Source: Bradyrhizobium sp.
GTDB lineage: Bacteria > Pseudomonadota > Alphaproteobacteria > Rhizobiales > Xanthobacteraceae
Assembly: GCA_040392305.1 (NCBI GenBank)
Contig: JBEBWH010000001.1
Location: 1 to 52,259, forward strand
DNA length: 52,259 nucleotides
Direction: 5' to 3'
In this document: in pieces, positions 17,838 to 52,259 of the stretch
How positions within the stretch are numbered: the stretch's first letter is position 1
Layout of the letters: each line of letters opens with the position of its first letter
Notes under the pieces: generated by a model
Told to the model about the DNA's origin: nothing
The model's database searches: none
What the model saw: the letters and a program-made list of their open reading frames with translations, nothing else
Translations under genes and position numbers: made by a program

Positions 17838-19235
17838 TCATTGACGCTGTTGCTCTTTTTCAAGCCGCTTGAGCCAGCCCCGCGCCTGCGCGCGCACATT
17901 TTTGCCGGCGGTTCCGCCGTAGCTGACGCGGCTTTTGACCGACGCTTCCACCGAAAGCACGTTGAACACATCCTCGGTGATGCGCGGTTCCACCGCCTGC
18001 ATGGCGGCGAGCGGCAGCTTGTGGAGCGCGACGCCCTGTCCGGCGGCCTCGGCGACGATGCGGCCGGTGACGTGATGGGCCTCGCGGAACGGCATTTTCA
18101 GCGTCCGAACCAGCCAGTCGGCGAGGTCGGTCGCGGTCGAATAGCCGTCGCCCGCGGTCGCCTTCATCCGCTTCTTGTCGGGGATCAGATCGCGCACCAT
18201 CCCGGTCATCGCCCGGACCGCCAGCGACAGCGCGGCAAAGGCGGCCATGGCGCCTTCCTTGTCCTCCTGCATGTCCTTCTGATAGGCGAGCGGCAGCCCC
18301 TTCATCACGATCAGCAGCGCGTTGAGCGAGCCGATGATGCGTCCGGTCTTGGCGCGCACCAGTTCGGCGGCGTCCGGGTTGCGCTTCTGCGGCATGATCG
18401 AGGAGCCGGTGGTGAACTTGTCCGACAGCCGCACCAGCCCAACCAGCGGCGAGGTCCAGATCACGATCTCTTCGGCGAAGCGCGACAGGTGCACCGAGGC
18501 GATGGCGGCCGCCGCCAGCGTTTCGAGCACGAAGTCGCGATCCGACACCGCATCGAGCGAATTGGCCATCGGGCGAGCGAAGCCGAGCGCCTTGGCGGTC
18601 GCCTCGCGGTCGATCGGGAACGAGGTGCCGGCCAGCGCCGCAGCACCCAGCGGGCTTTCGTTGAGGCGCTTGCGGGCATCGGCCAGCCGGCCGCGGTCGC
18701 GCGCCGCCATTTCGACATAGGCCATCAGGTGATGGCCGAACGTCACCGGCTGCGCCGTCTGCAGATGGGTGAAGCCGGGCATCACCGTGTCGGCATGTTC
18801 CAGCGCGCGTTCGGCCAGCGCCTGCTGGAAATCGGCGAAGGCGAGATCGAGCGAATCGAGCGTATCGCGTACATAGAGGCGAAAATCGGTTGCAACCTGA
18901 TCGTTGCGCGAGCGCGCGGTGTGCAGCCGCCCCGCGGCGGGGCCGATCAGCTCGGCCAGACGGCTTTCGACATTCATATGGATGTCTTCGAGCGCGCGCT
19001 TGAAGGTGAATTTGCCGTCGGCGATTTCTGACAGAATCGTGTCTAGACCCTGCGCGATGTTTTTTGCATCGTCCGGCGCGATGATGCCCTGAGCGGCCAG
19101 CATTGCGGCGTGCGCCTTCGAGGCGGCGATATCCTGCGCGTAAAGGTGACGATCGACGTCGATCGAGACGTTGATGTCCTCCATGATCGCGGCGGGGCTG
19201 TCCGTGAATCGCCCGCCCCACATTGTGTTGCTCAT
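17838..19235 (-). CDS. argH: argininosuccinate lyase
   Basis: 465 aa. MWGGRF N-terminus. Fumarate-lyase signature [12 protein letters not shown]. Confidence 0.95.
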
Positions 19236-35697: not shown

Positions 35698-35782
35698 GCC
35701 CCTGTGGCGGAACTGGTAGACGCGCTCGACTCAAAATCGAGTTCCGCAAGGAGTGCTGGTTCGATTCCGGCCAGGGGCACCA
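35698..35782 (+). tRNA. tRNA-Leu (anticodon CAA)
   Basis: Hand-folded. Acceptor GCCCCTG/CAGGGGC. D-arm GCGG..AACTGGTAGA. Anticodon stem CTCGA/TCGAG with loop CT-CAA-AA. Long variable arm TTCCGCAAGGAGT. T-arm GCTGG-TTCGATT-CCGGC. Discriminator A and encoded CCA. Confidence 0.9.
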
Positions 35783-35965: not shown

Positions 35966-37168
35966 ATGCCAGCACGCACTGAGTTAACGTTCCGAAACGC
36001 CAAGCCGGCAGAAAAGCCGTTCAAATTGTCGGATGGCGGCGGCCTTTTTTTGCTCATCCAACCAAGCGGCTCGAAGCTTTGGAGGCTCGCTTATCGCTAT
36101 GGTGGCCGTCAGAAGCTTCTTGCACTCGGCAGCTACCCACTCGTCTCCTTGGCTGATGCGCGCACGGCTCGGGAAGCAGCAAAGAAACTTTTATCTGACG
36201 GCATTGATCCGTCCGAAGCTCGAAAGTCAGAACGTCGCGCGCAGAAGATATCCCGAGTTAATACGTTTGGCTCGATCGCTCACGAGTGTCTTATCAAGTG
36301 GCAGGCCGAAGGTGCATCATCGCGGACGCTCACAAAAAAGAATTGGCTCCTAGAATTTCCTATAAGAGATTTTGGAAATCGCCCTATCGCTGAGATCAAG
36401 ACCGCCGACCTTCTCGACAGCCTTCGCAAAATTGAGAAGAACGGCCGACATGAGACAGCTCTGCGCGTCAGAAGTGTCGTCGGTGAAGTTTTTCGATATG
36501 CAATCGCGACGAGCCGTGCAGAACGCGATATCGCGGCAGACCTTCGTGGTGCATTGATCGCGCCGAAAGTCAAGCATCATGCCGCAATCACCGACCCGAA
36601 GAAAATCGGAGCGTTAATGAGGGCAATCCACGATTTCGACGGCCAGCATACCACTCGCGCCGCCTTGAAGCTTGCACCGCTTGTGTTCGTCCGGCCGGGC
36701 GAACTTCGCATGGCTGAATGGTCCGAAATCGATCTGACAGCCCGTGTATGGCGCATTCCGGGAAGACGCATGAAGATGGGCGGCGATCACATCGTTCCCC
36801 TTTCCGACCAGGCCGTCTCTATCCTTTCTGAACTGAAACAGCTAACCGGCAGTTCGAAACTCCTCTTTCCCTCGATACGATCGTGGCATCGGCCTATTTC
36901 CGAAAATACACTGAATGCGGCGTTGCGTCGGCTCGGATATTCCACAGAGGAGATGACGACGCATGGCTTTCGGACGATGGCTTCAACGCGATTAAACGAA
37001 AGTGGAAAATTCAACTCCGATGCCATCGAGCGGCAACTTGCCCATCAAGAGAAGAACGAGGTCCGTCGCGCATACAACGCTGCGCAGTATCTGCTCGAAC
37101 GAACGCGAATGATGCAAGAGTGGGCCGATTATCTCGACGAGCTTAGGGAAGAAAAGCATCGCGGCTGA
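35966..37168 (+). CDS. int: tyrosine-type site-specific integrase (P4-like, DUF4102 N-terminal domain)
   Basis: 400 aa. 'LTFRNAKPAEKPFKLSDGGGLFLLIQPSGSKLWRLAYRYGGRQKLLALGSYP' is the classic P4-integrase arm-binding domain. C-terminal HGFRTMAST...ERQLAH...VRRAYN catalytic residues. Confidence 0.93.
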   Translation: MPARTELTFRNAKPAEKPFKLSDGGGLFLLIQPSGSKLWRLAYRYGGRQKLLALGSYPLVSLADARTAREAAKKLLSDGIDPSEARKSERRAQKISRVNTFGSIAHECLIKWQAEGASSRTLTKKNWLLEFPIRDFGNRPIAEIKTADLLDSLRKIEKNGRHETALRVRSVVGEVFRYAIATSRAERDIAADLRGALIAPKVKHHAAITDPKKIGALMRAIHDFDGQHTTRAALKLAPLVFVRPGELRMAEWSEIDLTARVWRIPGRRMKMGGDHIVPLSDQAVSILSELKQLTGSSKLLFPSIRSWHRPISENTLNAALRRLGYSTEEMTTHGFRTMASTRLNESGKFNSDAIERQLAHQEKNEVRRAYNAAQYLLERTRMMQEWADYLDELREEKHRG

Positions 37169-39297: not shown

Positions 39298-39783
39298 ATG
39301 GTCAAGAACAAACTGGTGGTGAAGTCAAGGCATCCGGCCGCTCTTAATCTGCTGAAGAATCACGCCCCCGAGTGCGTCGATGATCTTGCGTGGCCAAAGG
39401 ACTTTCGTGAGCTTCTGGGCCAAATCATCGAAACAAAGCGGATTCGCGTCATTGCTGCCGGTACTCCCGGCGTTGGGAAGACTTGCGGAGCAGAACTCCT
39501 AATTCGTCTATTGGACCTCGACGCCATCTGGCTCCGTGGCATCAAAGGCGGCGGAATTGACGAAATCAAGGAGGCGGTCGTTGCGGCAAGCATGGTGTCC
39601 CTGGAGGGCAAGCGGCGTGCGATCATTATCGACGAAGCCGACTCCTATAGCTCCCATGCACTGAACGTGCTTCGCGGCGACACGATGGAAGACGATGACG
39701 TTGCGTTCATCATCATGTGCAACGATGCCGCAAAAATTCCGGATGCGGTGAGATCGCGATATGTTCATCTTCGACGCAAGTGA
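39298..39783 (+). CDS. RFC/DnaX-like AAA+ ATPase core, apparently truncated before the lid domain
   Basis: Walker A GTPGVGKT, GIDEIKE, Walker B IIIDEAD, NVLRGDTME, IIMCN, and RSR (SRC-like) in clamp-loader order. Stops 10 codons after RSR. Confidence 0.65.
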   Translation: MVKNKLVVKSRHPAALNLLKNHAPECVDDLAWPKDFRELLGQIIETKRIRVIAAGTPGVGKTCGAELLIRLLDLDAIWLRGIKGGGIDEIKEAVVAASMVSLEGKRRAIIIDEADSYSSHALNVLRGDTMEDDDVAFIIMCNDAAKIPDAVRSRYVHLRRK

Positions 39784-41158
39784 CAAGGCTCAGGCCAACG
39801 CGCTTCAACGAGAGCAATTGCGCCGCGCCCTCGAAATTCTCGAGGCCGAAGGCATCGCAGCCGACCCAGATCAGGTGAAGGCCGTGCTCGCTCCTCACAA
39901 AACTGATTTCCGAAGTGGCTTACGTGCGCTCGAACGATGGATGAGCCGGCTCGGAAGCGAAGCCACAACGGCGTCCTCGAATATCACGGTTCCAACACAG
40001 TGTTTGACTGCGGACGTCGACGACGAGATCGACAAAGACGCTGCCACGAATTCAGATTACGACGACACAGTCGGCAATTACCCAGCAATTGGTGGCGATA
40101 CTGACGGACATGCGCGAGTCGCGAATGAAACGTCAGCGCTGCTCAGTACTATACGAGGTATATTCGAAGAACACCTTGTTTTGCCGTCCGGCGGATCGAC
40201 AGCACTTGCCCTATTCACGATGCTTGCGTATGCCAAGGATGCCGTGGATTACATGCCAATTCTTGCGATCGTGTCCCCGCAGAAGGAATGTGGCAAAACT
40301 GCCACCCTCGACCTCTTAAGTATGTTGATCGATGGTGCTGTTTCGACTGTAAATATCACGCCCGCGGCTGTGTTTGAAAAGGCCGATGAAGGAGTTCCCC
40401 TCCTCATCGATGAAGCTGACCTGTTTCTCTCAAAGAACAGCGACCTGATTCGCCTTCTAAATGGCGGCATTAGGCGGAGTTCTGCGAAAGTCTATCGGGC
40501 AGGTAACAAGTCTTACAGCGTCTGGTGTCCGAAAATCATTGCACGCATCGGTGCGATTGAACCGGCGACGCTCGCAAGCCGTTGCATCAAGATCAGAATG
40601 CGGCGAAGTTTGCCCGATGAAGTCCGCGCCCGCGTTCGACCACAACTCGAAGAGGCCTTTGCTCCGCTGCGCGAACGCCGCGAAAGTTGGGTGGCAAACT
40701 CGAAAAAGATCATTGAGATGTCTGACCCGCAGATGCCGACAGGCTTTCGGGGCCGGCTGGCCGATAATTGGCGGGGACTCCTTGCGATTGCGGATCTTGC
40801 CGGCAAACACTGGGGCGCGCTGGCTCGCACCGCTGCGATGGCTCTCGAGGATATGGGCGGAGCCGAACTAGACCTCGGAACTCTTCTCCTCCAGGATATT
40901 CGCGAAATCTTGGCCGATGGCGGAATTCAACAGATATTTTCGGCAGACCTAGCCGATCTTTTGCGGAAGAAGGCGGATCGGCCATGGGTCACATGGTCAA
41001 GATATCCGCAACGCGAGATTGCGAAAATCCTCGATCCGTATGGCATTCGCCCGAAGAACATTAGAATTTTTCCCAGACAGGCTAAGGGTTATACCGCCGA
41101 TCAATTTGAAGATACCTTTCGACGATTTCTTAACGGTCAGTCGGCGGAAGCGGCCTAG
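39761..41158 (+). CDS. DUF3631 domain protein (P-loop NTPase plus C-terminal winged-helix-like part). N-terminus looks like the missing AAA+ lid.
   Basis: 465 aa. Overlaps the previous ORF by 23 nt in the +1 frame. 'SPQKECGKT' and 'LLIDEADLF'. C-terminal 'RLADNWRGLLAIADLAG..W' and 'GIRPKNIRI...KGYTADQFEDTFRRFL' are hallmark DUF3631 segments. Confidence 0.8.
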   Translation: MFIFDASDKAQANALQREQLRRALEILEAEGIAADPDQVKAVLAPHKTDFRSGLRALERWMSRLGSEATTASSNITVPTQCLTADVDDEIDKDAATNSDYDDTVGNYPAIGGDTDGHARVANETSALLSTIRGIFEEHLVLPSGGSTALALFTMLAYAKDAVDYMPILAIVSPQKECGKTATLDLLSMLIDGAVSTVNITPAAVFEKADEGVPLLIDEADLFLSKNSDLIRLLNGGIRRSSAKVYRAGNKSYSVWCPKIIARIGAIEPATLASRCIKIRMRRSLPDEVRARVRPQLEEAFAPLRERRESWVANSKKIIEMSDPQMPTGFRGRLADNWRGLLAIADLAGKHWGALARTAAMALEDMGGAELDLGTLLLQDIREILADGGIQQIFSADLADLLRKKADRPWVTWSRYPQREIAKILDPYGIRPKNIRIFPRQAKGYTADQFEDTFRRFLNGQSAEAA

Positions 41159-41190: not shown

Positions 41191-41431
41191 CACCACCGCC
41201 GTGGTCGAGACGAAAGCCGACCTCCGGTAGAAGTTGCGGCTTAACTCAAGGCGTAAGCGCCTAAGATGGCTTCCTCACCCATACGATTGCGCAAGCATCG
41301 GTCGCGAATCCAGCCACCTTAAAGACTGCAGCAATCGTCTGCAAAGGAGCCCGCATTGAGCTTGATTTACGACATTTATGGATTTTATTCCTAATTTATT
41401 ATATGCTATTGCTTTTGCCACGGAGCCATTC

Positions 41432-42016
41432 ATGAGTCTTATTGGGTATGCACGCGTTTCGACTGCCGACCAGAATCCTGCATTACAAACAGACGCGCTG
41501 AGGACGGTTGGATGCAGCCGCGTTTTTGTCGAAACGGCATCGGGGGCTCTCAATGACCGCCCTCAACTCAACGCTGCGCTCGACTACCTTCGGGCCGGCG
41601 ACACGCTGGTTGTCTGGAAGCTTGATCGGCTCGCTCGCTCGATCAACCATTTGATTGCAACCATCGATAAACTGCAGCAGCTGGGCTGCGGGTTTCAGTC
41701 GCTGACGGAATCGATCGACACCACGACCCCCACCGGCAAGCTGACCTTTCACGTCTTTAGTGCCCTAACTGAATTTGAGCGCAGCATCATCCGAGAACGC
41801 ACTTTAGCCGGGCTTGTGTCGGCTAGAGCCCGGGGTCGGGTGGGTGGACGGCCACGAAGTCTTTCAAGCCAAGATATCGTAGCTGCGAAAGCGCTTATTC
41901 GCGATGGCACACTCACCATTGCGGATGTGGCCCGCCGGGTCGGGGTTTCCGACGCAACGCTTTACAAATACATCCCCCACCCGCGCAACAGCATGGTTGA
42001 AGGGATGCCAGATTGA
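41432..42016 (+). CDS. serine recombinase (resolvase/invertase family) with C-terminal HTH
   Basis: ATG 41432. 'IGYARVSTADQNPALQ' catalytic Ser, 'LVVWKLDRLARS', 'ALTEFERSIIRERT', 'GRVGGRP', and a C-terminal HTH 'IADVARRVGVSDATLYKYI'. Confidence 0.9.
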   Translation: MSLIGYARVSTADQNPALQTDALRTVGCSRVFVETASGALNDRPQLNAALDYLRAGDTLVVWKLDRLARSINHLIATIDKLQQLGCGFQSLTESIDTTTPTGKLTFHVFSALTEFERSIIRERTLAGLVSARARGRVGGRPRSLSSQDIVAAKALIRDGTLTIADVARRVGVSDATLYKYIPHPRNSMVEGMPD

Positions 42017-42189
42017 GAAGCTCCGCAACGGTTGCGTTGGATGAATTTAATGCGGCGCGATGTCTGATGAGGATGTAGCCATCATTGTCGATCCGATGGT
42101 GTTATCGCTTGGTCGACGACATTCTAGATATGTGTGGGGACGCTGCCACGGCGTCGCCGATGCATATCCGTTTAATTGGTGAGAGAGAC

Positions 42190-42425
42190 GAGGACGCCCG
42201 CTGCGAAGCGGCAAGCTGTCGCGCCTCTCGTGGCCGATCACGGGATGAGCGAACGCCGGGCGTGTAAAGCCATCGGCTCCTGCCGCATGACGATCAGATA
42301 CCAGACGATCCGCACGGACGACACCGACCCTGCGCGAGCGCATGAGGGCCATCGCGCAGGAGCGTCGGCGCTTTGGCTAACGGCGCATCCATGTGTTGCT
42401 CAAACGGGAGCGCTTCGTGGTCTGC
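42190..42425 (+). pseudogene. IS3-family transposase (OrfB N-terminal) fragment
   Basis: 'VADHGMSERRACKAIGSCRMTIRYQ' then, after a frame change near 42320-42330, 'LRERMRAIAQERRRFG*RRIHVLLKRERFVV' with an in-frame TAA (42378-42380) where IS3 transposases have Tyr. No DDE region follows. Confidence 0.65.
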
Positions 42426-42534
42426 CGAAGGCTCCGCGCCAGCCCCCGTCGCTTCCACCGCCCGATCGGGCAAATCCAACCGCCGGAGCGAACTCCAAAT
42501 TGGATAAAACCCGAGGGGCAACGTCACACCAGAT

Positions 42535-42985
42535 CGCCAGCGCTGACCTCAATCACGTCATACGAAAGGTCTCGGCCATTTGCTGCGGTTGCGACGTCAA
42601 TCTGAAGATTCGTAGCGGCAGCATTCATGCGTTGATCGGCCCCAATGGGGCCGGCAAGACGAACTGTTTCAATCTGCTGACCAGGTTCCTGCAGCTATCC
42701 GCCGGGCATGGCTCCCGCCGATGTCTCGCGGCTCGGCTTGGTGCGCTCGTTCCAGATTTCGGCGGTGTTTCCGCATCTGACGGCGCTGGAGAACGTCCGC
42801 ATAGCGCTGCAGCGTCAGCACAGCGACTCTTTCGATTTCTGGCGTTCAAGAGCGTGCTCGACTGCTTCAATATGCGCGCGGAGGAACTGCTGGATGACGT
42901 GGGCTTGGGTGAATTCGCTAAGGCGCCGGCGGGTGAAGTGCCTTTCCGCAGGGTTCCATTGGCTTTTGCTTGGCGGTGGCTGTAG
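42535..42985 (+). pseudogene. LivG-like ABC transporter ATP-binding protein remnant
   Basis: 'IHALIGPNGAGKTNCFNLLTRFL' (Walker A), then an internal deletion/frame change. 'PADVSRLGLVRSFQISAVFPHLTALENVRIALQ' (Q-loop) follows in another frame, then a third frame for 'AEELLDDVGLGEFA'. No signature motif or Walker B. Confidence 0.7.
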
Positions 42986-43006: not shown

Positions 43007-44398
43007 TCAGATCATTCGGAGTGGATCCAGCGCCGCCTCCAAGGCCTCGACCTCAACTAATCCACTATCGGCCAGAGTGTCATGCAAGGCCAGGCCGGTC
43101 GCTAAAGCTTTCTTCGCAAGCAACGCTGCCCGTTCATAGCCGATAATAGGAACGAGTGCCGTTACCAGCCCGGTGCTGCGATCGAGATGATGCCGACAGT
43201 GATCTCTATTAGCGGCAACTCCATTAATACAACGTTCGGTGAGCGTAGCAGTTGCTTTGGTTAATAGCTTCTGAGACATTAGCAGATTGAAGACGATCAA
43301 GGGCTCCATTGCGTTAAGCTGAAGCTGCCCAGCCTCTGCTGCGAAAGTCACGGCCAAGTCGTTTCCTATTACTTGAAAGCACACCTGATTCATCAATTCT
43401 GGGATAACCGGATTTACCTTTCCGGGCATGATAGATGAGCCTGGCTGCTGGTCGGGCAAATGAATTTCGCCGAAGCCGCCGCGCGGGCCGCTCGATAACA
43501 AGCGAAGATCGTTCGAAATTTTGGAAAGCTTAGTCGCGGTTCTTTTGAGCATTCCTGAATACAGAACGAATGCCCCGGTGTCCCAGTTCGCCTCGATCAG
43601 ATTGTTCGAAGGCCGAATATTGACGCCGCTCACTCGAGCCAGCTCCTCGAGAGCAAGCTTTCGGTAGACAGGAGAGGCATTCAGGGCGGTCCCAATCGCA
43701 GTGCCGCCGAGGTGAATCTCCTTTAGAAGGTCAGCTATTTCGCGTCCCCGTTCAATGTCTTCGGTCATTGTCGTCGCATACGCTAGGAATTCCTGTCCCA
43801 ATGTCATGGGCACCGCATCCTGCAGTTGGGTGCGTCCCAACTTGATAACGTCCTTAAATTCGAACCCTTTCGCCTGGAATGCGCTGACCAGACGCGAAAG
43901 TTCTTTATCGAGGAGCGCGTGACTAAAAACAATCGCAAGCCGGCAAGCCGTTGGGTACACATCGTTTGTAGATTGCGACATGTTTACATGATCATTGGGG
44001 TGGACTCTTTCCGGCACTCCATTGTTGGAGAGCGTCCGGTTTGCAAGCGTCGCGATGACCTCGTTCGCATTCATGTTAAATGATGTGCCGGCACCACCTT
44101 GAATCATGTCGAGTGGAAACTCGTTGTCCCAATGATTGTCGATGATCTCATCGCAGGCCGTTCGGATAGCGGCATGTCGATGAGCATCGAGATTTCCTGC
44201 CTTCTGATTTGCATCGGCTGCTGCACGTTTCACCATTCCGATAGCGCGTATAAGAAGGGGGAACTGCGAGGCTTTGATATCTGATACTCGAAAGTTCTCC
44301 AAGGCACGTTGGGTCTGTGCGCCCCACAATCTGTTGGGCTGGATGGAAATCGGACCCAGTGAATCAATTTCGATTCTGTCGTCGCAAACCGTCTTCAT
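43007..44398 (-). CDS. aspA: aspartate ammonia-lyase (aspartase/fumarase class II superfamily)
   Basis: 463 aa. GAGGAG RBS. 'GGAGTSFNMNANEVI', and a signature loop 'GSSIMPGKVNPVIPELMNQVCFQVIGND' that is closer to AspA (..NPV.PE..NQVCF.V.GND) than to FumC. Confidence 0.85.
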   Translation of the reverse strand: MKTVCDDRIEIDSLGPISIQPNRLWGAQTQRALENFRVSDIKASQFPLLIRAIGMVKRAAADANQKAGNLDAHRHAAIRTACDEIIDNHWDNEFPLDMIQGGAGTSFNMNANEVIATLANRTLSNNGVPERVHPNDHVNMSQSTNDVYPTACRLAIVFSHALLDKELSRLVSAFQAKGFEFKDVIKLGRTQLQDAVPMTLGQEFLAYATTMTEDIERGREIADLLKEIHLGGTAIGTALNASPVYRKLALEELARVSGVNIRPSNNLIEANWDTGAFVLYSGMLKRTATKLSKISNDLRLLSSGPRGGFGEIHLPDQQPGSSIMPGKVNPVIPELMNQVCFQVIGNDLAVTFAAEAGQLQLNAMEPLIVFNLLMSQKLLTKATATLTERCINGVAANRDHCRHHLDRSTGLVTALVPIIGYERAALLAKKALATGLALHDTLADSGLVEVEALEAALDPLRMI

Positions 44399-44781
44399 AA
44401 CGAACTGTGCTCCTCCGTAATGGGCTTTTGGGTGAAATGTTAGTTTAGAGACTGCAATTTTAATGTCTCTCTGGTGTGGGGCAGACAGGCTTCGGGGCGG
44501 CGGCTGATATCTCGGTGATGAGTCTGGGGTCGTCGTATTATCATGACATCGCCGGTTTCGATCACGATCGCGCCTCCTTCAGTTGCTCTGGACCAGAATG
44601 TTTTGTTCACGACCAATTCAATCTTGGAGCGCATCCTCTACGAACGCAGTATCATTGTCTGAACATATGGGCCCAGGGATGCTCGCGAGAGAAGCAACTC
44701 GCACAGTGCCTCGATGATGTCTCAAGGCCGTTATTCGCTGGCGCGGTGAGCCGCTCTTCTCTAGTGTTCGGACGAACAGTT

Positions 44782-45747
44782 TCATATTGGGCTTGTATCG
44801 TTACTGAGTCGAACGAAGCGCTCGCTAAGGGATGCCGCCTTCTCCACGCGACTGAGATTTTTTCGCACAATTTCCGGTCGAGCATGAACACAGGATGCCA
44901 GTAAGAGATTGGTAAGGGCTACGGCAGCAACAAAGGAATTGCCATAAAAATCCGAAATGGCGGGTGCGATAAGGCTGTAGTCGCAGAGCTGCGCGGCTGG
45001 CGCGCTCAGCGAGTCAGTAAGCGCTCCGGTGCGCGTGCCAGATGATTTTGCAATCTGGATCGCATCAATCGTTTGTTTGCTATATCGAGGAAACGAGTAA
45101 GCGATTAAAACGTCTTCCCTGTCTATCCAACTCAATTGTTCGAACATGGTATCGCTCGAGTCAATGACAATGACTTTGGGTGCGATCTTTGTGAGGTAGT
45201 GACCCAGCAAAGTGGCAAGCGCCCGCGACGAACGCAGTCCTACTATGTAACAGGTCTCGGCAGCGCAAACGGCTTCGATAAGGTTGTGCAGGGCTGTGCG
45301 ATCGATGCGTTCAAGCGCCGCTTGGAGATTGAGAGTCTCCCGCTCTGCCAAGTGCGTAATTAGATTCGATTCATCCTTGATCTCATCGTGGCCTATAAGT
45401 CGATCAATCGGAGAAAGCGTTTCGAGCAATCCCTCGCGCAAAAACTCCTGCAGTTCAGGATATCCGTGGAATCCGAGCATTCTCGCAAAGCGCACTACTG
45501 TCGATTCGCTAGCGTTGACGCTCGAAGCGATCTCTGCCGCGGTTAGAAATGCAGCCTTGTGCCCACTTTTCAATAAGAAGGCGGCGATCTTGTTTTGGGT
45601 GGCCGATAAAGATCGCTCGATACTGTTTAGACGGTCGAGCAAGGATCGTTCGCGCAAATTCAATCTCCTTTTTAAAGCTCTGCCTGATGGGTAGACATAA
45701 CACAATACTTGCACCAATGGTGGAATTATGTCATCCTTAACGTGCAC
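44782..45747 (-). CDS. MurR/RpiR family transcriptional regulator (HTH plus SIS domain)
   Basis: 'LSATQNKIAAFLLKSGHKAAFLTAAEIASSVNASESTVVRFARMLGFHGYPELQ' HTH_6 region, then a SIS domain (CYIVGLRSS..., IAYSFPRYS). The true start is probably downstream of 45747. Confidence 0.85.
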   Translation of the reverse strand: MHVKDDIIPPLVQVLCYVYPSGRALKRRLNLRERSLLDRLNSIERSLSATQNKIAAFLLKSGHKAAFLTAAEIASSVNASESTVVRFARMLGFHGYPELQEFLREGLLETLSPIDRLIGHDEIKDESNLITHLAERETLNLQAALERIDRTALHNLIEAVCAAETCYIVGLRSSRALATLLGHYLTKIAPKVIVIDSSDTMFEQLSWIDREDVLIAYSFPRYSKQTIDAIQIAKSSGTRTGALTDSLSAPAAQLCDYSLIAPAISDFYGNSFVAAVALTNLLLASCVHARPEIVRKNLSRVEKAASLSERFVRLSNDTSPI

Positions 45748-45845
45748 TTCTGAAGCCGCGACTTAGGGCGCCAAATAACACGAAATGAAGTTGGATATGG
45801 GGGTTGAACGGCCGCGCCTGCGAATGACCTGGCCTCGCGACGTTT

Positions 45846-45871
45846 GCAGTGCACTCAGGCAGTGCACTCAG
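45846..45871. promoter_or_regulatory. perfect 13-bp tandem repeat GCAGTGCACTCAG x2, each containing the palindrome AGTGCACT
   Basis: Located in the 229-bp divergent region between the RpiR regulator and the molybdenum-hydroxylase operon. Confidence 0.5.
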
Positions 45872-45976
45872 TAAGTGTCCTTGGGTGGTTCAATGGTGTC
45901 TTTCGGTGGCAACTCCTGCTGTCGGAGACCCATGTGGCGCTACGGCGAGCGGTCTTAAGAACCGTCAGGAGATGAA

Positions 45977-46861
45977 ATGAAGCTGCCTAACTTTGAGTAC
46001 GCTTCCCCTTCGACGATATCTGAAGCGATAAGCTTGCTCGCTTCACGCGACGGCAATGCAACGGTCATATCCGGCGGGCAAAGTTTGATGCCAATGTTGG
46101 CATTCCGGCTTGCCTCGCCTGAATTGCTCGTCGATCTCAAGCGATTGAAGGGTCTCGATACCATCGATATTCGCGACGATGGCGTGCGGCTGGGAGCCAA
46201 GGTCCGTTGGTGCGATATTGAAAGCAACAGTCGATTGACGCGGAGCCATCCGTTACTGGCCGAGGCGATCAAGCACGTAGCCCACTATCAGGTTCGCAAC
46301 CGAGGGACGGTGGGTGGGTCGTTGGCGCATGCAGACCCATCGGCGGAAATGCCGGGCGTGACAATGGCCTGCGATGGATCGATTACCATTGTCGGGAGTC
46401 GCGGCGTGAGGATTGAAAAGGCCGCCGATTTCTTCGTCGGTCCGTTGACTACCTCTCTTGAGCCAGACGAGATCATCACGGAAGTGCATCTTCCGAGCTG
46501 GCCCGCCGACAGACGATGGGCGTTTTGTGAATTTGCTCGCAGAAAGGGCGATTTCGCCATGGCGGGCGTGGCATTGTTCTATGATCTTGATGAGCAAGAT
46601 CGTGCAGTCGATGCTCGCATTGGTGTCATCGGCGTTTCGGATTGTCCCAAAAGATTGACTGAGGCTGAGGCATCGCTGAATGGTAATGCGGTCACCGAGG
46701 AAGTTATCTCGGCTGTTGTGGCTGCCGCAAAAGATTCTGTTGATCCGCCATCCGACATTCATGCGTCGGGAGCTTACCGACGTGCCTTGCTAGGCACGCT
46801 GCTGAGTCGTGCTCTCCAGCAGTCGGCTTCACGGGAAAAAAACAATGCAAGTCCAGTTTGA
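45977..46861 (+). CDS. molybdenum hydroxylase FAD-binding (medium, CoxM/XdhB-like) subunit
   Basis: 294 aa. AGGAGA RBS. 'FEYASPSTISEAISLLA....ATVISGGQSLMPMLAFRL' and 'RNRGTVGGSLAHADP' are canonical for the FAD_binding_5 family. Confidence 0.88.
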   Translation: MKLPNFEYASPSTISEAISLLASRDGNATVISGGQSLMPMLAFRLASPELLVDLKRLKGLDTIDIRDDGVRLGAKVRWCDIESNSRLTRSHPLLAEAIKHVAHYQVRNRGTVGGSLAHADPSAEMPGVTMACDGSITIVGSRGVRIEKAADFFVGPLTTSLEPDEIITEVHLPSWPADRRWAFCEFARRKGDFAMAGVALFYDLDEQDRAVDARIGVIGVSDCPKRLTEAEASLNGNAVTEEVISAVVAAAKDSVDPPSDIHASGAYRRALLGTLLSRALQQSASREKNNASPV

Positions 46862-47315
46862 ACTGAACGGAGAGGCTGTCGTCGCGGACGTCGAGCCTCG
46901 CACTACGCTTGCCGATTGTCTACGGGATGGCTTGCGGAAAACTGGAACTCACGTCGGATGCGAGCACGGTGTATGTGGCGCCTGTACCGTTCTCGTTAAT
47001 GGCGATGCTGTGCGTTCTTGTCTTGTGTTAGCTGTTCAGGTGGAGGGCGATAAGGTCGTGACTATCGAGGGGCTGTCAGGAGATGAGCTTTCACCGTTGC
47101 AGGCGGCATTTCGCAAGCATCACGCACTTCAGTGCGGTTTCTGTACCCCAGGATTCATCACGACGGCCCATGCACTGCTCACCAAAGAATCCAATGTAGA
47201 TGCTGAGCGGGTCCGGAATGTCCTCTCCGGCAATCTTTGCAGGTGTACCGGCTATCTTCCGATTGTCGAGGCTGTTCTGGACGCTCGCATCCATTATGCA
47301 CCGAGCGAGAAATAG
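46845..47315 (+). CDS. (2Fe-2S)-binding small subunit (CoxS-like)
   Basis: ATG 46845 (17-nt overlap with the previous gene). 'GCEHGVCGACTV' and 'QCGFCTPGF...CRCTGY' cluster motifs. Confidence 0.9.
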   Translation: MQVQFELNGEAVVADVEPRTTLADCLRDGLRKTGTHVGCEHGVCGACTVLVNGDAVRSCLVLAVQVEGDKVVTIEGLSGDELSPLQAAFRKHHALQCGFCTPGFITTAHALLTKESNVDAERVRNVLSGNLCRCTGYLPIVEAVLDARIHYAPSEK

Positions 47316-47318
47316 ACG

Positions 47319-49613
47319 ATGAAGGTGTCGAACTCCCACATCGGGCGACCGATGGAGCGTATCGAAGATTTGCGCATGGTGCGAGGACGGGGCACCTATG
47401 TTGCCGACGTCAATCGATCCGACCAGCTCTATGCGGTGATAATGCGCAGCTCTGTTGCGCACGGAAAAATCCACTCGATCGAATTTAGCCGGGCTCTTGA
47501 ATTGCCGGGTGTGAAGCTTGTCCTGACCGCTGCGGATCTAGGTGCGGCTGTACCGCGGATTCCTGTTCGCTTGCAGCCGCTGCCGGAGCTTGAGCCATTT
47601 CACCAGCCGATGCTTGCAGACGGGAAAGTTCGCTACGTCGGTGAACCTGTCGCTGTCGTGATTGCCGAAAGCGCAGCTATCGCGGAAGACGCACTGGAGC
47701 ATATCGACCTTAACATTGAGCGTTTGCGCGCAATTACCAACCGGGAGCAAGTCGAGGCTGCGCCGTCGGTACTCTTCGAAGATCATGGCTCCAACACCGC
47801 GATCACATGGAAGGCGTTTCTTGGAGACGCTGACGCAGCATTTAAGGCCGCAGAGTATATTCGCAGGGAAAAATTCCAGATTCAGCGCCACACTGCGATG
47901 TTTATGGAGCCCAGAGGATTTGTCGCGGAGTGGGACAGCAATGCGTCGAATTTGACGGTGTGGGGAGCTGCAAAGCTAGCGTGGCACAATCGTCGTGTGC
48001 TCGCCGCGGCGCTAGGCGTGAACGAAGACGCCGTGAATCTCGTTGAGGTCGATGTGGGAGGCGGGTTCGGGTCTCGTGGAGAATTCTATCCCGAGGACTA
48101 TCTAATTCCCGCGGCGGCCCGGATTGTGCGTCGCCCCGTGAAATGGACGGAGGATCGGCGCGAGCACATGATGAGTTCCAACCATGCGCGCGAAATCGAA
48201 TGTGACGTTGAGATCGCTTTGAGCAAGGACGGACGTTTTCTCGGGCTTCGCGGTCAGATTTGGGCTGATATCGGTGCTTACTTGCGAACCAATGGCTCGA
48301 TGGGGCCAAGAAACGTCGCGCAGTTCCTGTGTGGTCCGTATTGTTTCGACAACATTGATCTGAAGTGTTCGATGCTGACGACGAACAAGACGCCTAGCGG
48401 CAGCTATCGGGGGCCAGGCAGGTTCGAGGCTGATTTTATCCGGGAGCGCTTGATCGATATCGTCGCGAAAGAACTGGACATCGATCGCCTCGAAATACGT
48501 CGCCGCAATCTGGTCGCGGACAGCCAGATGCCATACCGGCTGCCGTACATCACCCCGTCCGATAGTTCAAACGAACTCGACAGCGGAGATTACCATGCAG
48601 TGTTCGAACGTTGTCTTCAGGAGTTTAATTGGGAGGAAAAGAGCAAGCTGCGGGGGAAGCTGATAGAGGGCTACTATCACGGCCTCGGAATCGGCAGTTT
48701 TATCGAAGGAGGCGCTGCCGGGCCTAAGGAGGATGCTCGTCTCGTCCTTGAGGTTGACGGTTCTCTCTCGGTGTATCTCGGTTCTTCGGCGATCGGCCAG
48801 GGTCTGGAAACGATTATGGCTCAGATCGCGGCGGACGCGACCGAGCTTCCAATCGAGAAGATCACCGTCAATCATGGATCGACGAGCGATGTAAAGGATG
48901 GCTACGGCTCCTATCATTCTCGCTCCACTGTCATGGGCGGCTCGTCGATTTTACTCGCGGCAGAGAAACTGAAGGAATTGATACGCGAAACCGCAGCGAA
49001 GCGGTTCAACTGCCGCCCTGCTGAAGTTCTTATCGAGGGCGAGGAAATTAGTTGTGCGGGCAGTCGTCTGTCGCTTTCAATGCTGTCAGACGAGCCGTTG
49101 GAGGTCGAAGCCTCTTTCTACAATGCCAAGCACACGTGGGCTTATGGGACGCAGGCGGCGCATGTCGCGGTGGATCCGGAAACCGGAGAAGTCAAGGTGA
49201 TTGACTATCTTTCGATCGAAGACGTTGGCCGAATGATCAATCCCCTGACACTACATGGACAGGCGGTCGGGTCCATCGTTCAAGGTCTTGGCGGAGCGCT
49301 TCTGGAGCACCTTGTTTACGATGCAGAAGGTCAGCTTCTCACCGGATCGTTTGCCGATTACTTGTTGCCGACGGCGTCCGACTTCCCGAGCATTCGTTCG
49401 ATCACGCTTGAGTTGAAGCCGTGTCCCAACAATCCATTGGGGGCGAAAGGTGCAGGCGAGGGTGGCGTAATTCCGGTGGGAGGAGTTATCGGTAATGCGG
49501 TTGCGGATGCGCTGTCTCATTTCAATGTGCAGCCGTCGGAGCTACCGCTATCTCCCCCTCGGGTCTGGGAATTGATTGAACAGGCGCGCCAGCACAAATC
49601 TGGTCTTACTTAG
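47319..49613 (+). CDS. molybdopterin-binding large subunit (xanthine dehydrogenase/CoxL family, non-CODH active-site loop)
   Basis: 764 aa. 'GGGFGSRGEFYPED', 'PSGSYRGPGRFEADF', 'GAKGAGEGGVIP'. Lacks the AYxCSFR motif of genuine CO dehydrogenases. Confidence 0.9.
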   Translation: MKVSNSHIGRPMERIEDLRMVRGRGTYVADVNRSDQLYAVIMRSSVAHGKIHSIEFSRALELPGVKLVLTAADLGAAVPRIPVRLQPLPELEPFHQPMLADGKVRYVGEPVAVVIAESAAIAEDALEHIDLNIERLRAITNREQVEAAPSVLFEDHGSNTAITWKAFLGDADAAFKAAEYIRREKFQIQRHTAMFMEPRGFVAEWDSNASNLTVWGAAKLAWHNRRVLAAALGVNEDAVNLVEVDVGGGFGSRGEFYPEDYLIPAAARIVRRPVKWTEDRREHMMSSNHAREIECDVEIALSKDGRFLGLRGQIWADIGAYLRTNGSMGPRNVAQFLCGPYCFDNIDLKCSMLTTNKTPSGSYRGPGRFEADFIRERLIDIVAKELDIDRLEIRRRNLVADSQMPYRLPYITPSDSSNELDSGDYHAVFERCLQEFNWEEKSKLRGKLIEGYYHGLGIGSFIEGGAAGPKEDARLVLEVDGSLSVYLGSSAIGQGLETIMAQIAADATELPIEKITVNHGSTSDVKDGYGSYHSRSTVMGGSSILLAAEKLKELIRETAAKRFNCRPAEVLIEGEEISCAGSRLSLSMLSDEPLEVEASFYNAKHTWAYGTQAAHVAVDPETGEVKVIDYLSIEDVGRMINPLTLHGQAVGSIVQGLGGALLEHLVYDAEGQLLTGSFADYLLPTASDFPSIRSITLELKPCPNNPLGAKGAGEGGVIPVGGVIGNAVADALSHFNVQPSELPLSPPRVWELIEQARQHKSGLT

Positions 49614-49773
49614 AATGTTCGCGGCAGTGGGGAGCGCCTGAAGCCATTGCGTACTTTATAATCTAAGCTGAGGTTCGTGCTCGCAAAGGCCATTCTGTCT
49701 CAGTCTTGCATCGATTTTCGCAGAAAACTTGCATCTATGACGGAATTATGCTGTTAAGAAACTCCGAAGGCCA

Positions 49774-50919
49774 GTGAGAGGTAAAACTGTGGAGTGTTTG
49801 AACATTTCCGACGATGCTGACTGGCTCGGAGAGGCTCTTGTCCAGGAAGCGCGGGCGATCTGCCGCATTCCTTCTCCGACCTTCGCGGAAGGAAAGCGTG
49901 CGGAGTATGTGGCTGGCCGTCTCAAGGAAATGGGCCTGCAAGCGGAAATTGACGATCTGCACAATGTGACGGCGGTACTTTCCGCGGGGGGGGGCGGGGC
50001 GGCGATCATGCTGGTCGCTCACATCGATACCGTATTCCCCGAAGGAACCGATGTTGAGCCCCGTTGGGATGGTCGATTTTGGCGTGCGCCCGGCATCCGG
50101 GACAATAGTGCATCCGCTGCAATCGTGCTTCTGTTTCCGGAGTTGCTGCGCCGTAAGGCTGTGAAACTGTCAAGCGATGTTAGGTTGGCGTTTTCCGTTG
50201 GGGAAGAAGGGTTGGGTAATCTTCGCGGAATTCGCGCTTTAATGGATCGATATGCTGATGACGTCTCGGCAGTGATCGCCGTGGATGGAAACTTGGGAGT
50301 CGTCAATCACGTCGCTATCAGTGTTCGGCGGCTGGAAATTTCTATCAAAACGGAAGGTGGACATAGCTGGGCGGATGCTGGAAAGCCGAGCGCTATCCAT
50401 GTACTCGCGCGCATCGCCGGAAAGATAAGTGAAATCGCAATTCCCTCAAATCCGAAGAGCGTTCTCAATATCGGTACGGTGAGCGGCGGGACATCAGTTA
50501 ACGCAATCGCCCAACGGGCTCAGTTCTCGCTTGATATCAGGTCCGTCGACAATGCCGTTGTTGAGGAACTGGAAGCGAAAGTTCGGGGGATCATCGGATC
50601 CCTGCCTCGTGATGAGCGAGTGGGCATTGAGGTTGCCGTCATTGGAGATCGTCCTGGTGGAATGATTTCATCCGATCATCCATTGGTCGAGTCGATCCTG
50701 ACAGGTTATGCAAAAGCCGGGATTGAACCGGTGTTGTTGCCCGGAAGTACCGACGCCAACATCCCGCTCTCACGCGGCATTCCAGCTGCTTCAATGGGAG
50801 TGACCGCCGGGGGAAGTATTCACACCCTGCAGGAGTTCTTAGATCCAAAAAGTTTGCCTATTGGCGCTCTTGCGCTTTTGGAAGCCGTGATCTCGCTACA
50901 GAATGGCGCTCAACGATGA
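49774..50919 (+). CDS. M20 family metallopeptidase/amidohydrolase
   Basis: 'MLVAHIDTVFP' (HxD), 'GIRDNSAS', 'SVGEEGLGNLRG' (EE), 'GGTSVNAIA', 'GGSIHTLQEFL'. GTG start uncertain. Stop overlaps the next ATG (ATGA). Confidence 0.8.
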   Translation: MRGKTVECLNISDDADWLGEALVQEARAICRIPSPTFAEGKRAEYVAGRLKEMGLQAEIDDLHNVTAVLSAGGGGAAIMLVAHIDTVFPEGTDVEPRWDGRFWRAPGIRDNSASAAIVLLFPELLRRKAVKLSSDVRLAFSVGEEGLGNLRGIRALMDRYADDVSAVIAVDGNLGVVNHVAISVRRLEISIKTEGGHSWADAGKPSAIHVLARIAGKISEIAIPSNPKSVLNIGTVSGGTSVNAIAQRAQFSLDIRSVDNAVVEELEAKVRGIIGSLPRDERVGIEVAVIGDRPGGMISSDHPLVESILTGYAKAGIEPVLLPGSTDANIPLSRGIPAASMGVTAGGSIHTLQEFLDPKSLPIGALALLEAVISLQNGAQR

Positions 50920-52070
50920 TTACCCTGCTGCGAAATTGTCGTCTTCATGCTCCCCGTGATATGGGCACCAAGGATCTGCTGATCGCGGGCCATCGTATTG
51001 CCGCCATCGCGGACTCGTTACCGCGTTCTGCTTTTCCCAATGTCTTGGAAGTCGACTGTCAGGGAAAGGTGGTTGCGCCTGGATTTATCGACAGTCATGT
51101 TCATATCCTTGGAGGTGGCGGCAGCAATGGTCCGATTACCCGCGGCCCTGAATTAAAGTTGACCGAATTTACTCTCAACGGAACGACCACCGTCGTGGGC
51201 CTGTTAGGCGCGGACGGTTTAACACGGGACCTGATGGGACTTCTGGCCAAGGCACGGGCACTCGAACTCGAGGGCATGTCGGCCTACATTCTAATCGGCG
51301 CCTACGACTTGCCGCTTCCTTCGTTTACGGGCGATCTGAAGAAAGACATTGTTCTTGTTTCGAACGCTCTCGGCATCGGCGAGGTCGCCATCGCCGACAT
51401 GCGATCGTCACAACCGACACGTCAGGAGATCATTCGGATCGGCGCCGACGCCTGCATTGCCGGACGTCTTGCTGGGCGGGGCGGGATCGTCAACGTTCAT
51501 ATCGGACCTGGGAAGAACGGGATCGAGCTTCTTTTCGAGGCGGTAGAGCAAAGCGATCTTCCGGCGAACACCTACCTGCCAACTCACTGTAATCGAAACA
51601 GCGCGGTCCTCGACCAGATGGTGAGGTGGGCAAAGCTTGGCGGCCCTATCGACCTCACGACTATCAGGGTCATCCCGGAGTTTGTCACATGTCCTGACGC
51701 GGTGAAATACCTTTTGGCAAATCACGTCCCGCTTGAGTGCATCAGCATGAGCACTGATGGTGGCGGCGTCTTCCCGCATCTGTCAGGCAAGGATGGGAAG
51801 CCCGGGATGGCGCGATGGGAGGCCAGCGCTCTCCATCTTGAGTTCAAGGACATTGTTGATAATGGTTTGGACCTCGCATCCGCCCTCCATCTCGTAACTG
51901 CAAACCCGGCCAGACATCTGCGGCTCTATCCGCAGAAGGGAGCGATTGCGGTCGGCTCCGATGCCGATCTTGTCGTTCTGAATGAGGATCTGACGATCGA
52001 TAAAGTCATCGCTATGGGGAAGCTGATGGTCAATCAGGGGCAGGCTGTCATCCGCGGGCTTTTCGAATAG
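50916..52070 (+). CDS. iadA: beta-aspartyl (isoaspartyl) dipeptidase
   Basis: 384 aa. 'APGFIDSHVHILGGGGSNGPITRGPE...TTVVGLLGADGLTR...LLAKARALELEGMSAYILIGAY' closely follows the IadA pattern (GFID.HVH..GGGGE.GP.TR.PE). Confidence 0.85.
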   Translation: MITLLRNCRLHAPRDMGTKDLLIAGHRIAAIADSLPRSAFPNVLEVDCQGKVVAPGFIDSHVHILGGGGSNGPITRGPELKLTEFTLNGTTTVVGLLGADGLTRDLMGLLAKARALELEGMSAYILIGAYDLPLPSFTGDLKKDIVLVSNALGIGEVAIADMRSSQPTRQEIIRIGADACIAGRLAGRGGIVNVHIGPGKNGIELLFEAVEQSDLPANTYLPTHCNRNSAVLDQMVRWAKLGGPIDLTTIRVIPEFVTCPDAVKYLLANHVPLECISMSTDGGGVFPHLSGKDGKPGMARWEASALHLEFKDIVDNGLDLASALHLVTANPARHLRLYPQKGAIAVGSDADLVVLNEDLTIDKVIAMGKLMVNQGQAVIRGLFE

Positions 52071-52225
52071 CTGCGCGGTGACGTGACTTCAGACGTATTT
52101 ATTAATCGTGTGTGCGAGACGGGGGCGAGATCGATGACCACGCTTTCGGCGACGTTTCGAAGCCACGAGAGACATGGCGCATCGGTTTGAGACGAGAACA
52201 GGAAACAGGGAGGAGGAAATAAATA

Positions 52226-52259
52226 ATGACCAGTTTAGGCCGCATATTATTGGTTTCGA
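52226..52259 (+). CDS. 5' end of an unidentified gene (cut by window edge)
   Basis: ATG preceded by a strong RBS GGGAGGAGG. Only 11 codons visible (MTSLGRILLVS), hydrophobic. Confidence 0.3.
   Translation, partial: MTSLGRILLVS

Follow-up and report, generated by a model that had tools for sequence, protein, structure and literature searches.

The window, by which we mean the whole analysed stretch of 52,259 nucleotides of Bradyrhizobium sp. (contig JBEBWH010000001.1), carries towards its right end a compact gene cluster. In this cluster, the genes of a three-subunit molybdenum (Mo) hydroxylase, a metallohydrolase of the M20 family and an amidohydrolase of the isoaspartyl dipeptidase (IadA) family lie next to the gene of an RpiR/MurR-family regulator. 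All genes that a sequence-only reading of this DNA had named were recovered, each at the place that it had been given.

The regulator gene, rpiR (44782-45663, minus strand), encodes an N-terminal HTH_6 and a C-terminal SIS domain (Pfam). Its open reading frame (ORF) opens at 45747, but the start is probably TTG 45663, because this codon is preceded by the ribosome-binding site (RBS) AAGGAG and yields a product of 293 aa, compared to 287-291 aa in relatives. The best NCBIfam matches of the regulator are the HexR, AlsR and MurR models at 65-67 bits, far below the cut-offs. It had been described as divergent, which holds with respect to coxM; rpiR and the aspartase gene aspA on its other side run in the same direction, with a gap of 384 bp between them.

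The remaining genes of the cluster lie on the plus strand. The hydroxylase consists of a CoxM-like FAD-binding subunit (45977-46861, Pfam FAD_binding_5 and CO_deh_flav_C), a CoxS-like [2Fe-2S] subunit (46845-47315, Fer2 and Fer2_2; ORF from 46809), whose likely start ATG 46845 overlaps the end of coxM, and a CoxL-like molybdopterin subunit (47319-49613, Ald_Xan_dh_C and MoCoBD_1/2). The PahZ2-like M20 metallohydrolase (49789-50919, M20 and M20_dimer) probably starts at GTG 49789 with the RBS GAGAGG, inside an ORF that opens at GTG 49774. Its stop overlaps the start of the IadA-family gene (50916-52070, TIGR01975) in a genuine ATGA, as had been noticed before; the product of the latter belongs to a distinct subclade (E77S, T106A, S289V). 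Finally, a gene with the strong RBS GGAGGAGG and the start codon ATG 52226 runs off the window, which holds its 5' end (52226-52259). Its first 11 codons, MTSLGRILLVS, resemble MIKLSRILLSA of the TctC binding protein at the same position in a related locus (L001, see below), and it is predicted to encode the TctC of a tripartite tricarboxylate transporter (TTT).

To place the cluster in context, the neighbourhoods of IadA-like relatives were compared. The RpiR–CoxMSL–M20–IadA–TctC arrangement recurs in three further loci, with proteins 65-90% identical to those of the window: Bradyrhizobium sp. URHD0069 (L001), a metagenome contig (L003) and, in rearranged form, Bradyrhizobium sp. dw_78 (L012). 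In URHD0069 and L003, rpiR stands beside CoxM-S-L – M20 – IadA – TctC – LLM, where LLM denotes a luciferase-like oxidoreductase. In dw_78, it stands beside LLM – CoxM-S-L – M20 – IadA – TctC – TctB – TctA – FbiC(CofGH) – NpdG(Fno). Two other loci have shorter versions, namely CofH – NpdG – CofD – CofC – M20 – IadA – TctC – LLM in L005, and M20 – IadA – peptide-type ABC transporter – LLM in L010, where rpiR abuts the M20 gene directly. More distant loci retain just the IadA-like gene and the LLM gene. RpiR orthologues (55-86% identical) adjoin the cluster in URHD0069, L003, L010 and dw_78. The core of Mo hydroxylase, M20, IadA-like protein and RpiR is consequently co-conserved in independent loci and is not a chance juxtaposition; the objection that such genes might never be co-conserved elsewhere fails for this core. 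With the IadA-like protein as query, a close relative of the cluster was found in only two of about 185,000 species genomes, and the cluster is therefore rare among sequenced species. An exact match to the IadA-like protein of the window was looked for in the assembly collection and not found.

The best argument for placing the hydroxylase genes and the M20–IadA genes in one regulon is a non-coding element that both units share. Comparison of the rpiR-proximal intergenic regions of five loci revealed one common block, and its 28-bp consensus CTTGCATCAATGACGGAATACTGTTATC was scanned over the window and 94 loci (about 1.04 Mb, both strands), allowing at most 8 substitutions. Matches adjoin rpiR in all five distinct loci, and the four loci with cox genes all have one in the spacer between coxL and M20; none was detected anywhere else in this set. 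Thus, neither aspA nor any of the 80 metagenome loci carrying CoxL relatives has a copy. In the window, the promoter/operator-like copy P1, CTTGCACCAATGGTGGAATTATGTCATC (45708-45735, plus strand), precedes the rpiR start by 45-72 nt and coxM by about 240 nt, and the second copy P2, CTTGCATCTATGACGGAATTATGCTGTT (49728-49755, plus strand), lies in the coxL–M20 spacer. A degenerate pattern of the element gave exactly these two matches in the window, compared to 0.00 expected. In the case of dw_78, where the LLM gene precedes coxM, the copy is found upstream of LLM rather than of coxM itself. Because the element is duplicated in every locus that has both units, the two probably form one regulon, and the link between hydroxylase and M20/IadA that had been drawn from co-localisation is supported.

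P1 overlaps a sigma-70-like site on the minus strand with the -10 sequence CATAAT. P2 is conserved over about 40 bp and reads like TTGCAT-N17-TATCAT with a conserved spacer, which fits a candidate promoter overlapped by a regulator site. An additional half-site, CTTGCATCGAT, is present at 49705-49715, 23 bp upstream of P2, and does not occur in the P2 regions of URHD0069, L003 and dw_78. A clear palindromic operator within the 28 bp was looked for, and as only weak arms of 3 to 5 nt were detected, none is claimed. A generic promoter and terminator scan gave no enrichment over shuffled sequences and no terminator between coxL and the M20 gene. The L005 locus has neither an RpiR gene nor the element. 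Overall, the cluster is probably a horizontally acquired catabolic regulon of two transcription units under the control of its RpiR-type regulator.

Turning to the individual enzymes, the hydroxylase shows all the parts of its family: a FAD subunit, a subunit with two [2Fe-2S] clusters, a molybdenum cofactor (MoCo) subunit with a/b-hammerhead and MoCoBD domains, and the catalytic Glu, which lies in GAGEGG (GAKGAGEGG near the C-terminus of CoxL). The active-site loop reads GSYRGPGRFE and not VAYRCSFR as in CO dehydrogenase (CODH), in agreement with the sequence-only reading. Aerobic CO dehydrogenase (form I CoxL) was rejected on this loop and on the scores (TIGR02416, 390 bits against a cut-off of 991; group-5 model, 555 against 950). 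Xanthine dehydrogenase, glyceraldehyde dehydrogenase and 4-hydroxybenzoyl-CoA reductase were also rejected, all being under their curated cut-offs. Because CoxL stays below every curated NCBIfam cut-off, its substrate class is not assignable to a known family. The best solved relatives are 6-hydroxypseudooxynicotine dehydrogenase Kdh (7DQX, 467 bits) and then quinoline 2-oxidoreductase (1T3Q, 363 bits), thus enzymes that hydroxylate pyridine or quinoline rings. Both resemble the window enzyme in the three subunits (FAD, 2x[2Fe-2S], MoCo), the catalytic Glu, a YRGxGR-type motif and the lack of the CODH Cys motif. In contrast to them, the window hydroxylase has the gene order M-S-L and is linked to amidohydrolases instead of ring-cleavage dioxygenases.

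A scan of metagenome loci with CoxL gave about 55 loci with relatives at 69-82% identity, none of which has M20, IadA, LLM or RpiR genes nearby. Two contexts could be identified. The first contains TetR, aldehyde dehydrogenase, alpha/beta-hydrolase, Amidohydro_2, cupin and an NMT1-type ABC transporter; the second contains TctC, Zn-ADH, thioesterase, CoA ligase, a Rieske/LigXa-like oxygenase and again TctC. In a neighbour-joining tree, both of these aromatic-acid contexts fall into one clade (84/100 bootstrap) and the IadA-linked CoxLs lie outside it; those of the window, URHD0069 and dw_78 group at 87/100, with L003 basal in 75/100 replicates. On this basis, we rejected the idea that coxMSL was captured recently from the widespread aromatic-acid clusters. 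The IadA-linked CoxLs are thus a lineage of their own, and the linkage is old or repeated and not a recent accident. In one aromatic-context coxMSL locus (L050), an aspartase-like gene (301-1700; 53% identity to the aspA of the window) lies about 6 kb upstream of coxM, and other loci of this context that extend as far are without such a gene.

These data also bear on the question whether the two units act together at all. They could be independent modules that share the regulator only, an ancestral insertion of coxMSL between rpiR and the M20 gene having duplicated the promoter. The Mo hydroxylase would then serve a pathway of its own, like its orthologues elsewhere, by oxidising an aldehyde or an acid of aromatic or heteroaromatic type, and M20–IadA–TctC–LLM would be a separate amide or peptide module. 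The CoxL-relative loci without any of the partner genes are in line with this explanation, and so are L005 and L010, which have M20–IadA–LLM without a Mo hydroxylase, all the more as rpiR directly adjoins M20 in L010. On the other hand, the insertion and both promoter copies were kept across 74-75% CoxL identity, 65% RpiR identity and the rearrangement in dw_78, and the linked CoxLs form a lineage separate from those of the aromatic-acid clusters. We therefore regard two independent modules as improbable.

In the case of the M20 hydrolase, one solved structure stands out. PahZ2 (PDB 7LJH) of Sphingomonas sp. KT-1 is by far the best match (E 2.9e-49, 171 bits, 34% identity over 341 aa), and the next PDB match reaches 50 bits. 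The HxD, bridging-D, EE and C-terminal H metal-ligand motifs align. The two proteins are homologous, yet their distance is too large for an identical substrate to be taken for granted. PahZ2 frees monomeric aspartate from alpha- and beta-linked oligo-aspartate (PMC13017698), and this much speaks for the earlier suggestion of an aspartate-releasing hydrolase. The differences from PahZ2 concern location and partners. PahZ2, a periplasmic enzyme, attacks a synthetic polymer jointly with the serine hydrolase PahZ1, whereas the window M20 is translationally coupled to the IadA-like gene, aligns from residue 20 compared to residue 48 of PahZ2, and showed no signal peptide upon inspection of the N-terminus (no predictor was run). 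The annotations of the cluster and of the related loci showed no PahZ1-like gene, a dedicated PahZ1 search not being part of this comparison.

The amidohydrolase belongs to the IadA family by score (389.9 bits with TIGR01975, equivalog cut-off 331.25; 270-287 bits against isoaspartyl dipeptidases in the PDB). Its close relatives, however, form a group of 21 clusters at ≥60% identity, followed by a gap to ordinary IadAs at ≤50%. To compare residues, 120 homologues were tabulated, consisting of this 21-member subclade and 99 others, and the subclade members covering the respective positions were counted. The metal ligands H68, H70, H201, H230 and D285, as well as Y137, R169 and R233, are invariant both in the alignment and in this table, and, like LmIadA, the protein has Glu as the bridging residue (position 162). 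Solved IadAs use E77 and T106 to bind the alpha-amino nitrogen of the beta-aspartyl moiety (PMC5517026, PMC10206079). These two residues, and the Ser289 or Cys that contacts the substrate, are not found in the window protein, which has S77, A106 and V289. The same is true for the subclade, where E77 is changed to S or N, T106 to A and S289 to V or I in all members covering the positions; among the 99 other homologues, E77 is kept in 97 and S289 likewise in 97.

As both amino-binding residues are changed to smaller ones, the substrate probably is a beta-aspartyl-type amide with a substituted alpha-nitrogen, either acylated or part of a ring. A substituted alpha-nitrogen in turn would place the IadA-like enzyme before the M20 hydrolase, the latter then freeing aspartate. 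This order, amidohydrolase before deacylation by M20, had already been put forward, and the loss of the residues binding a free alpha-amino group fits it. Compared to canonical IadA (1ONW/1YBQ of E. coli, CpsIadA of Colwellia, LmIadA of Leucothrix; TIGR01975, MEROPS M38), the window protein shares fold, family, metal ligands and Y137/R169/R233. It differs in the three residues that touch the free alpha-amino group and the neighbouring oxygen of beta-Asp, which about 97% of the other family members retain, and in being paired with an LLM gene, not standing alone. Despite the equivalog score, the name 'isoaspartyl dipeptidase' is therefore doubtful for the subclade. If the mechanism proposed below is true, proteins currently auto-annotated as 'beta-aspartyl peptidase' would comprise a new specificity class of IadA amidohydrolases with the three-residue signature S77/A106/V289.

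Beyond the right edge of the window, related loci allow to extend the picture. The position after IadA is occupied by TctC in URHD0069, L003, L005 and dw_78, followed by TctB and TctA in dw_78; neither TctA nor TctB genes are present in the window. For the truncated gene the earlier reading had left the identity open, and what lies further on, being outside the window, had escaped it: a conserved LLM that is Mer-like and of F420 type, and F420/FO genes in two relatives. In seven of the eight distinct subclade loci, across phyla, the LLM gene either adjoins the IadA-like gene or is separated from it by no more than a few genes, and with 66-86% identity it is more conserved than its neighbours. 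Its top 11 NCBIfam matches are all F420-type families under their cut-offs (Mer, 145 bits), and the best PDB match is Mer as well. In L005 and dw_78, genes for F420/FO biosynthesis and Fno directly adjoin the cluster; the FO synthases and the NpdG/Fno proteins of the two loci are 73-77% identical to each other. In L005 (2-7816), cofH, npdG, cofD and cofC run into M20-IadA-TctC-LLM, with the cofC stop overlapping the M20 start. In dw_78 (12410-17642), TctB, TctA, a fused FO synthase (CofGH/FbiC, 803 aa) and NpdG/Fno continue the cluster, and cofC and cofD were not found in the next 3.5 kb.

Luciferase-like hydride transferases that depend on F420 (LLHTs) and act with Fno pass hydride on to aromatic rings that are electron-poor, to cyclic imines and to dehydro-amino acids (PMC8498797). 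The cluster-linked LLM resembles the LLHT-Fno system of npd picrate and dinitrophenol degradation (Rhodococcus, Nocardioides) in that its best matches are F420-type families and that it lies near NpdG/Fno and FO-synthase genes in two loci. It differs from this system in being located in Alphaproteobacteria-type loci, in scoring below the curated cut-offs and in lying outside the window. Relatives of the LLM at 60-68% identity sit with peptide ABC transporters, M28, M20 and GGT peptidases, MR_MLE, hydantoinase A/B and creatininase, a context that fits unusual-peptide and cyclic-amide metabolism alike.

The proximity of cofactor genes raises the possibility that M20 and the IadA-like enzyme process or salvage the oligo-glutamyl or acidic tail of F420 or of a pterin, the LLM simply binding the cofactor. 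The operon of L005 with its overlap of cofC and M20, the position of fbiC-npdG after TctA in dw_78, and GGT and PGA_cap genes in distant loci are compatible with this. The IadA family, however, recognises beta-aspartyl and not gamma-glutamyl amides, and the relative of M20 releases aspartate. Moreover, a binding protein for uptake and a repressor of catabolic type point to the use of a nutrient, and three of the five cluster loci, the window counted, have no F420 genes. Tail processing is accordingly very improbable.

Starting from the observed gene content, co-conservation, cis-element, residue substitutions and nearest characterised relatives, we propose a tentative mechanism of hydroxylation, F420-type reduction, hydrolysis of an amide or ring, and deacylation to aspartate, to which we assign somewhat less than an even chance. 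Unit 1, from P1, would supply the three-subunit Mo hydroxylase of the branch that hydroxylates N-heteroaromatic rings. Unit 2, from P2, would supply a cytoplasmic PahZ2-like M20, the variant IadA amidohydrolase and the TctC binding protein. Only the relatives would add TctBA and a luciferase-like hydride transferase of F420 type, together with FO synthase and Fno in two of them and also CofC/CofD in one.

In detail, the TTT system would import a carboxylated N-heterocycle or another N-substituted aspartyl compound. Where needed, CoxMSL would introduce a hydroxyl group beside the ring nitrogen, so that a lactam is formed, and the F420-type LLM would reduce the compound by hydride transfer. The IadA variant would subsequently hydrolyse a beta-aspartyl-type amide with a substituted alpha-nitrogen, with dihydroorotate-like chemistry as the template, and M20 would strip the N-acyl or N-carbamoyl group to release L-aspartate. 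On this island only, the neighbouring aspA could optionally convert aspartate to fumarate and ammonium, aspA being outside the conserved unit. In this sequence of events, the pairing of the regulator with its operator, the dependence on F420, the order of the steps and aspartate as the product are all presumed. The scheme proposed earlier, from hydroxylase to amidohydrolase to M20 to aspartate, is thus supported in part: the co-conserved core, the common element, the PahZ2-like M20 and the residue loss in the IadA-like protein speak for it, and its aspA step finds no such backing.

Similar successions of enzymes are known from other pathways. In the nicotinate fermentation of Eubacterium barkeri, a Mo nicotinate dehydrogenase is followed by 6-hydroxynicotinate reductase and enamidase. 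Orotate fermentation and reductive pyrimidine degradation use ring reduction, dihydroorotase or dihydropyrimidinase, and a ureido-acid amidohydrolase. Dihydroorotate itself is a cyclic beta-aspartyl amide with a substituted alpha-nitrogen, matching the altered IadA pocket. The common features are a Mo hydroxylase, a ring reductase, a cyclic amidohydrolase from the dihydroorotase/hydantoinase superfamily and a further amidohydrolase, whose family also comprises ureido-acid hydrolases. There is, however, no orthologous enzyme here; the reductase would be the F420-type LLM, the ring hydrolase the IadA variant and the final hydrolase the PahZ2-like protein. On the side of regulation, the RpiR-type repressor HpxU controls the catabolism of allantoate, a ureido acid, in Klebsiella pneumoniae, as mentioned in a passage of PMC11014249 that cites Guzman et al. 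2013. The likeness, as far as this passage goes, lies in an RpiR-type regulator combined with ureido-acid catabolism; the best family matches of the window regulator are those to HexR, AlsR and MurR. The HpxU-regulated cluster includes an M20-family allantoate amidohydrolase.

A more specific version of the proposal can be formulated, namely an alphaproteobacterial, Mo-hydroxylase-initiated and deazaflavin (F420/FO)-dependent route for N-heterocyclic carboxylates. Here, the LLHT would act as ring reductase, the IadA variant in a dihydroorotase-like manner and the PahZ2-like M20 as N-carbamoyl- or N-acyl-aspartate hydrolase, with aspartate as the end point. In this precise form we consider it speculative and rather unlikely.

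Several observations weigh against the proposed mechanism. With regard to regulation, the 28-bp element has no clear dyad symmetry, and binding of RpiR to it is a presumption. With regard to the enzymes, the IadA-like protein still passes the NCBIfam equivalog cut-off for isoaspartyl dipeptidase, the LLM scores below every curated F420-family cut-off, and the only characterised relative of M20 acts on peptides and not on carbamoyl or acyl groups. The F420 genes are absent from URHD0069, L003 and the 52-kb window, and the LLM and F420 genes all lie outside the window. The Mo hydroxylase is an add-on in the closest relatives only, the more distant M20-IadA-LLM loci being without it. Those distant IadA-like/LLM loci that carry peptide ABC transporters and peptidases (M24, M55, M28, GGT, dipeptide-epimerase-like MR_MLE) also have no Mo hydroxylase, and they are readable as peptide catabolism. 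Finally, no paper was found that links IadA-type enzymes with Mo hydroxylases or LLM enzymes.

A rival explanation assumes a different substrate, N-blocked or internal isoaspartyl peptides or oligo-aspartates, which the cell would import. The IadA-like enzyme would cleave beta-aspartyl bonds with an alpha-nitrogen acylated by the residue before it, and M20 would trim the products to aspartate, while the LLM and the Mo hydroxylase would act on a non-aspartyl part, such as a dehydro-residue or an aromatic cap, or perform side reactions. Such a role would suit an M20 whose only close characterised relative is an oligo-aspartate exohydrolase and an IadA family that is defined by the hydrolysis of beta-aspartyl dipeptides; the loss of E77 and T106 is equally suited to an acylated alpha-nitrogen inside a peptide. 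Reduction of dehydroalanine in peptides has been described for an LLHT (PMC8498797), and the distant loci contribute Opp/Dpp-type SBP_bac_5 transporters, genes of M24, M55, M28, GGT, MR_MLE and Asp/Glu-racemase type, and an MslH-like epimerase. This explanation nevertheless leaves the co-regulated N-heterocycle-type Mo hydroxylase without a role, and the transporter of the Bradyrhizobium-type loci is a TTT carboxylate system and not a peptide ABC transporter. Furthermore, many of the 'peptide' neighbours (hydantoinase A/B, creatininase, M24, the Asp/Glu/hydantoin racemase family) suit cyclic-amide metabolism equally. All in all, we judge peptides to be an unlikely substrate, though one to be taken seriously. 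As to the distant module versions, PGA_cap proteins adjoin the IadA-like/LLM pair in L010 (8155-9453), L008 and L097. The L010 protein, the only copy scanned, matches the model of the lasso-peptide C-terminal epimerase MslH with 387 bits (cut-off 700), which hints at peptide-epimerase chemistry in these versions.

Returning to the mechanism with hydroxylation and F420-type reduction, its significance would lie mainly in the combination. The cluster consists of known enzyme families in an undescribed arrangement, possibly with a new IadA specificity class and a first F420 role in Alphaproteobacteria. A review from 2021 states that no F420-dependent enzyme had been studied experimentally in bacteria outside Actinobacteria and that roles in Proteobacteria were uninvestigated (PMC8498797). 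If the mechanism is true, it would provide the first defined physiological role for F420 in Proteobacteria as well as a new function in the IadA family. It would also unite two aspartate-directed hydrolases with a Mo hydroxylase and an F420-type hydride transferase in one regulon, a combination on which we found no paper. As two Bradyrhizobium strains are in culture, and as the operon is compact and has a candidate operator, it would be a tractable system for the role of F420 in Alphaproteobacteria.

The aspartate ammonia-lyase gene aspA (43007-44398, minus strand) had been counted as part of an aspartyl pathway cluster, and this claim did not withstand comparison. The assignment itself is sound: the product contains Lyase_1 and FumaraseC_C domains and the SS-loop GSSIMPGKVNP (GSSxMPxKxN), and it scores 637 bits with NF008909 (cut-off 510); the stricter TIGR00839 is not reached (552 compared to 681). 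Membership in the cluster was rejected, since aspA is missing from every related locus, has no 28-bp element upstream and has its closest relative, 80% identical, in an unrelated neighbourhood. Specifically, aspA is absent next to rpiR in L003, L010 and dw_78. It is also absent there in URHD0069, where the 396 bp beyond rpiR show no similarity to the aspA-rpiR spacer of the window. The gene belongs to a small subgroup with 75-80% identity, followed by about 60% to ordinary rhizobial aspartases. A place downstream of aspartate release on this island is plausible and finds no support in the comparison.

The neighbourhood of the 80% relative (L099, 7334-17288) is of interest in its own right. There, the aspartase gene is flanked by three ArgE/DapE-type M20 deacylases, an ACAD-like gene, a GntR regulator, an SBP_bac_1 ABC transporter, DUF1028 proteins, SHMT and serine dehydratase. 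The deacylases are not PahZ2-like (36 bits), and the locus may be a separate N-acyl-amino-acid module ending in aspartate. In the host part of the window, a stretch with weak Lyase_1-family similarity to aspA (18327-18926, minus strand; 31% over 215 aa) presumably represents a different lyase of the fumarase/argininosuccinate lyase superfamily.

The whole region lies, as had been described before, on a low-GC island, which is apparently inserted at a tRNA-Leu gene in a host of 66.5% GC. At about 35.6 kb of the window, the GC content drops from 66.5% to 52-56% (about 55% for the island). The island is real, because this break coincides with tRNA-Leu(CAA) (35698-35782, plus strand, ARAGORN), the probable left attachment site, and an adjacent tyrosine integrase (35966-37168, plus strand; Arm-DNA-bind_3, Phage_int_M and Phage_integrase). 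Thus, a tRNA gene, a neighbouring integrase and a compositional shift are all seen at the left border, which is the only border that the window holds. The case is an example of a module of this kind being carried by a tRNA-Leu island to a host whose GC is much higher.

The integrase is P4-type, and the island further contains a DUF3631 protein (39761-41158), located between integrase and aspA, and a serine resolvase (41378-42016). Just left of aspA, a degenerate ORF (42176-42985) consists of transposase-like text fused to an ABC ATPase fragment. It looks like a recombination scar and suggests that aspA and the cluster were joined secondarily. Because the GC content of the island (55-56%) equals that of the URHD0069 and L003 loci including their flanks (about 56%), in contrast to the 66.5% of the host backbone in the window, the donor probably was a lower-GC relative of these Bradyrhizobium-labelled genomes.

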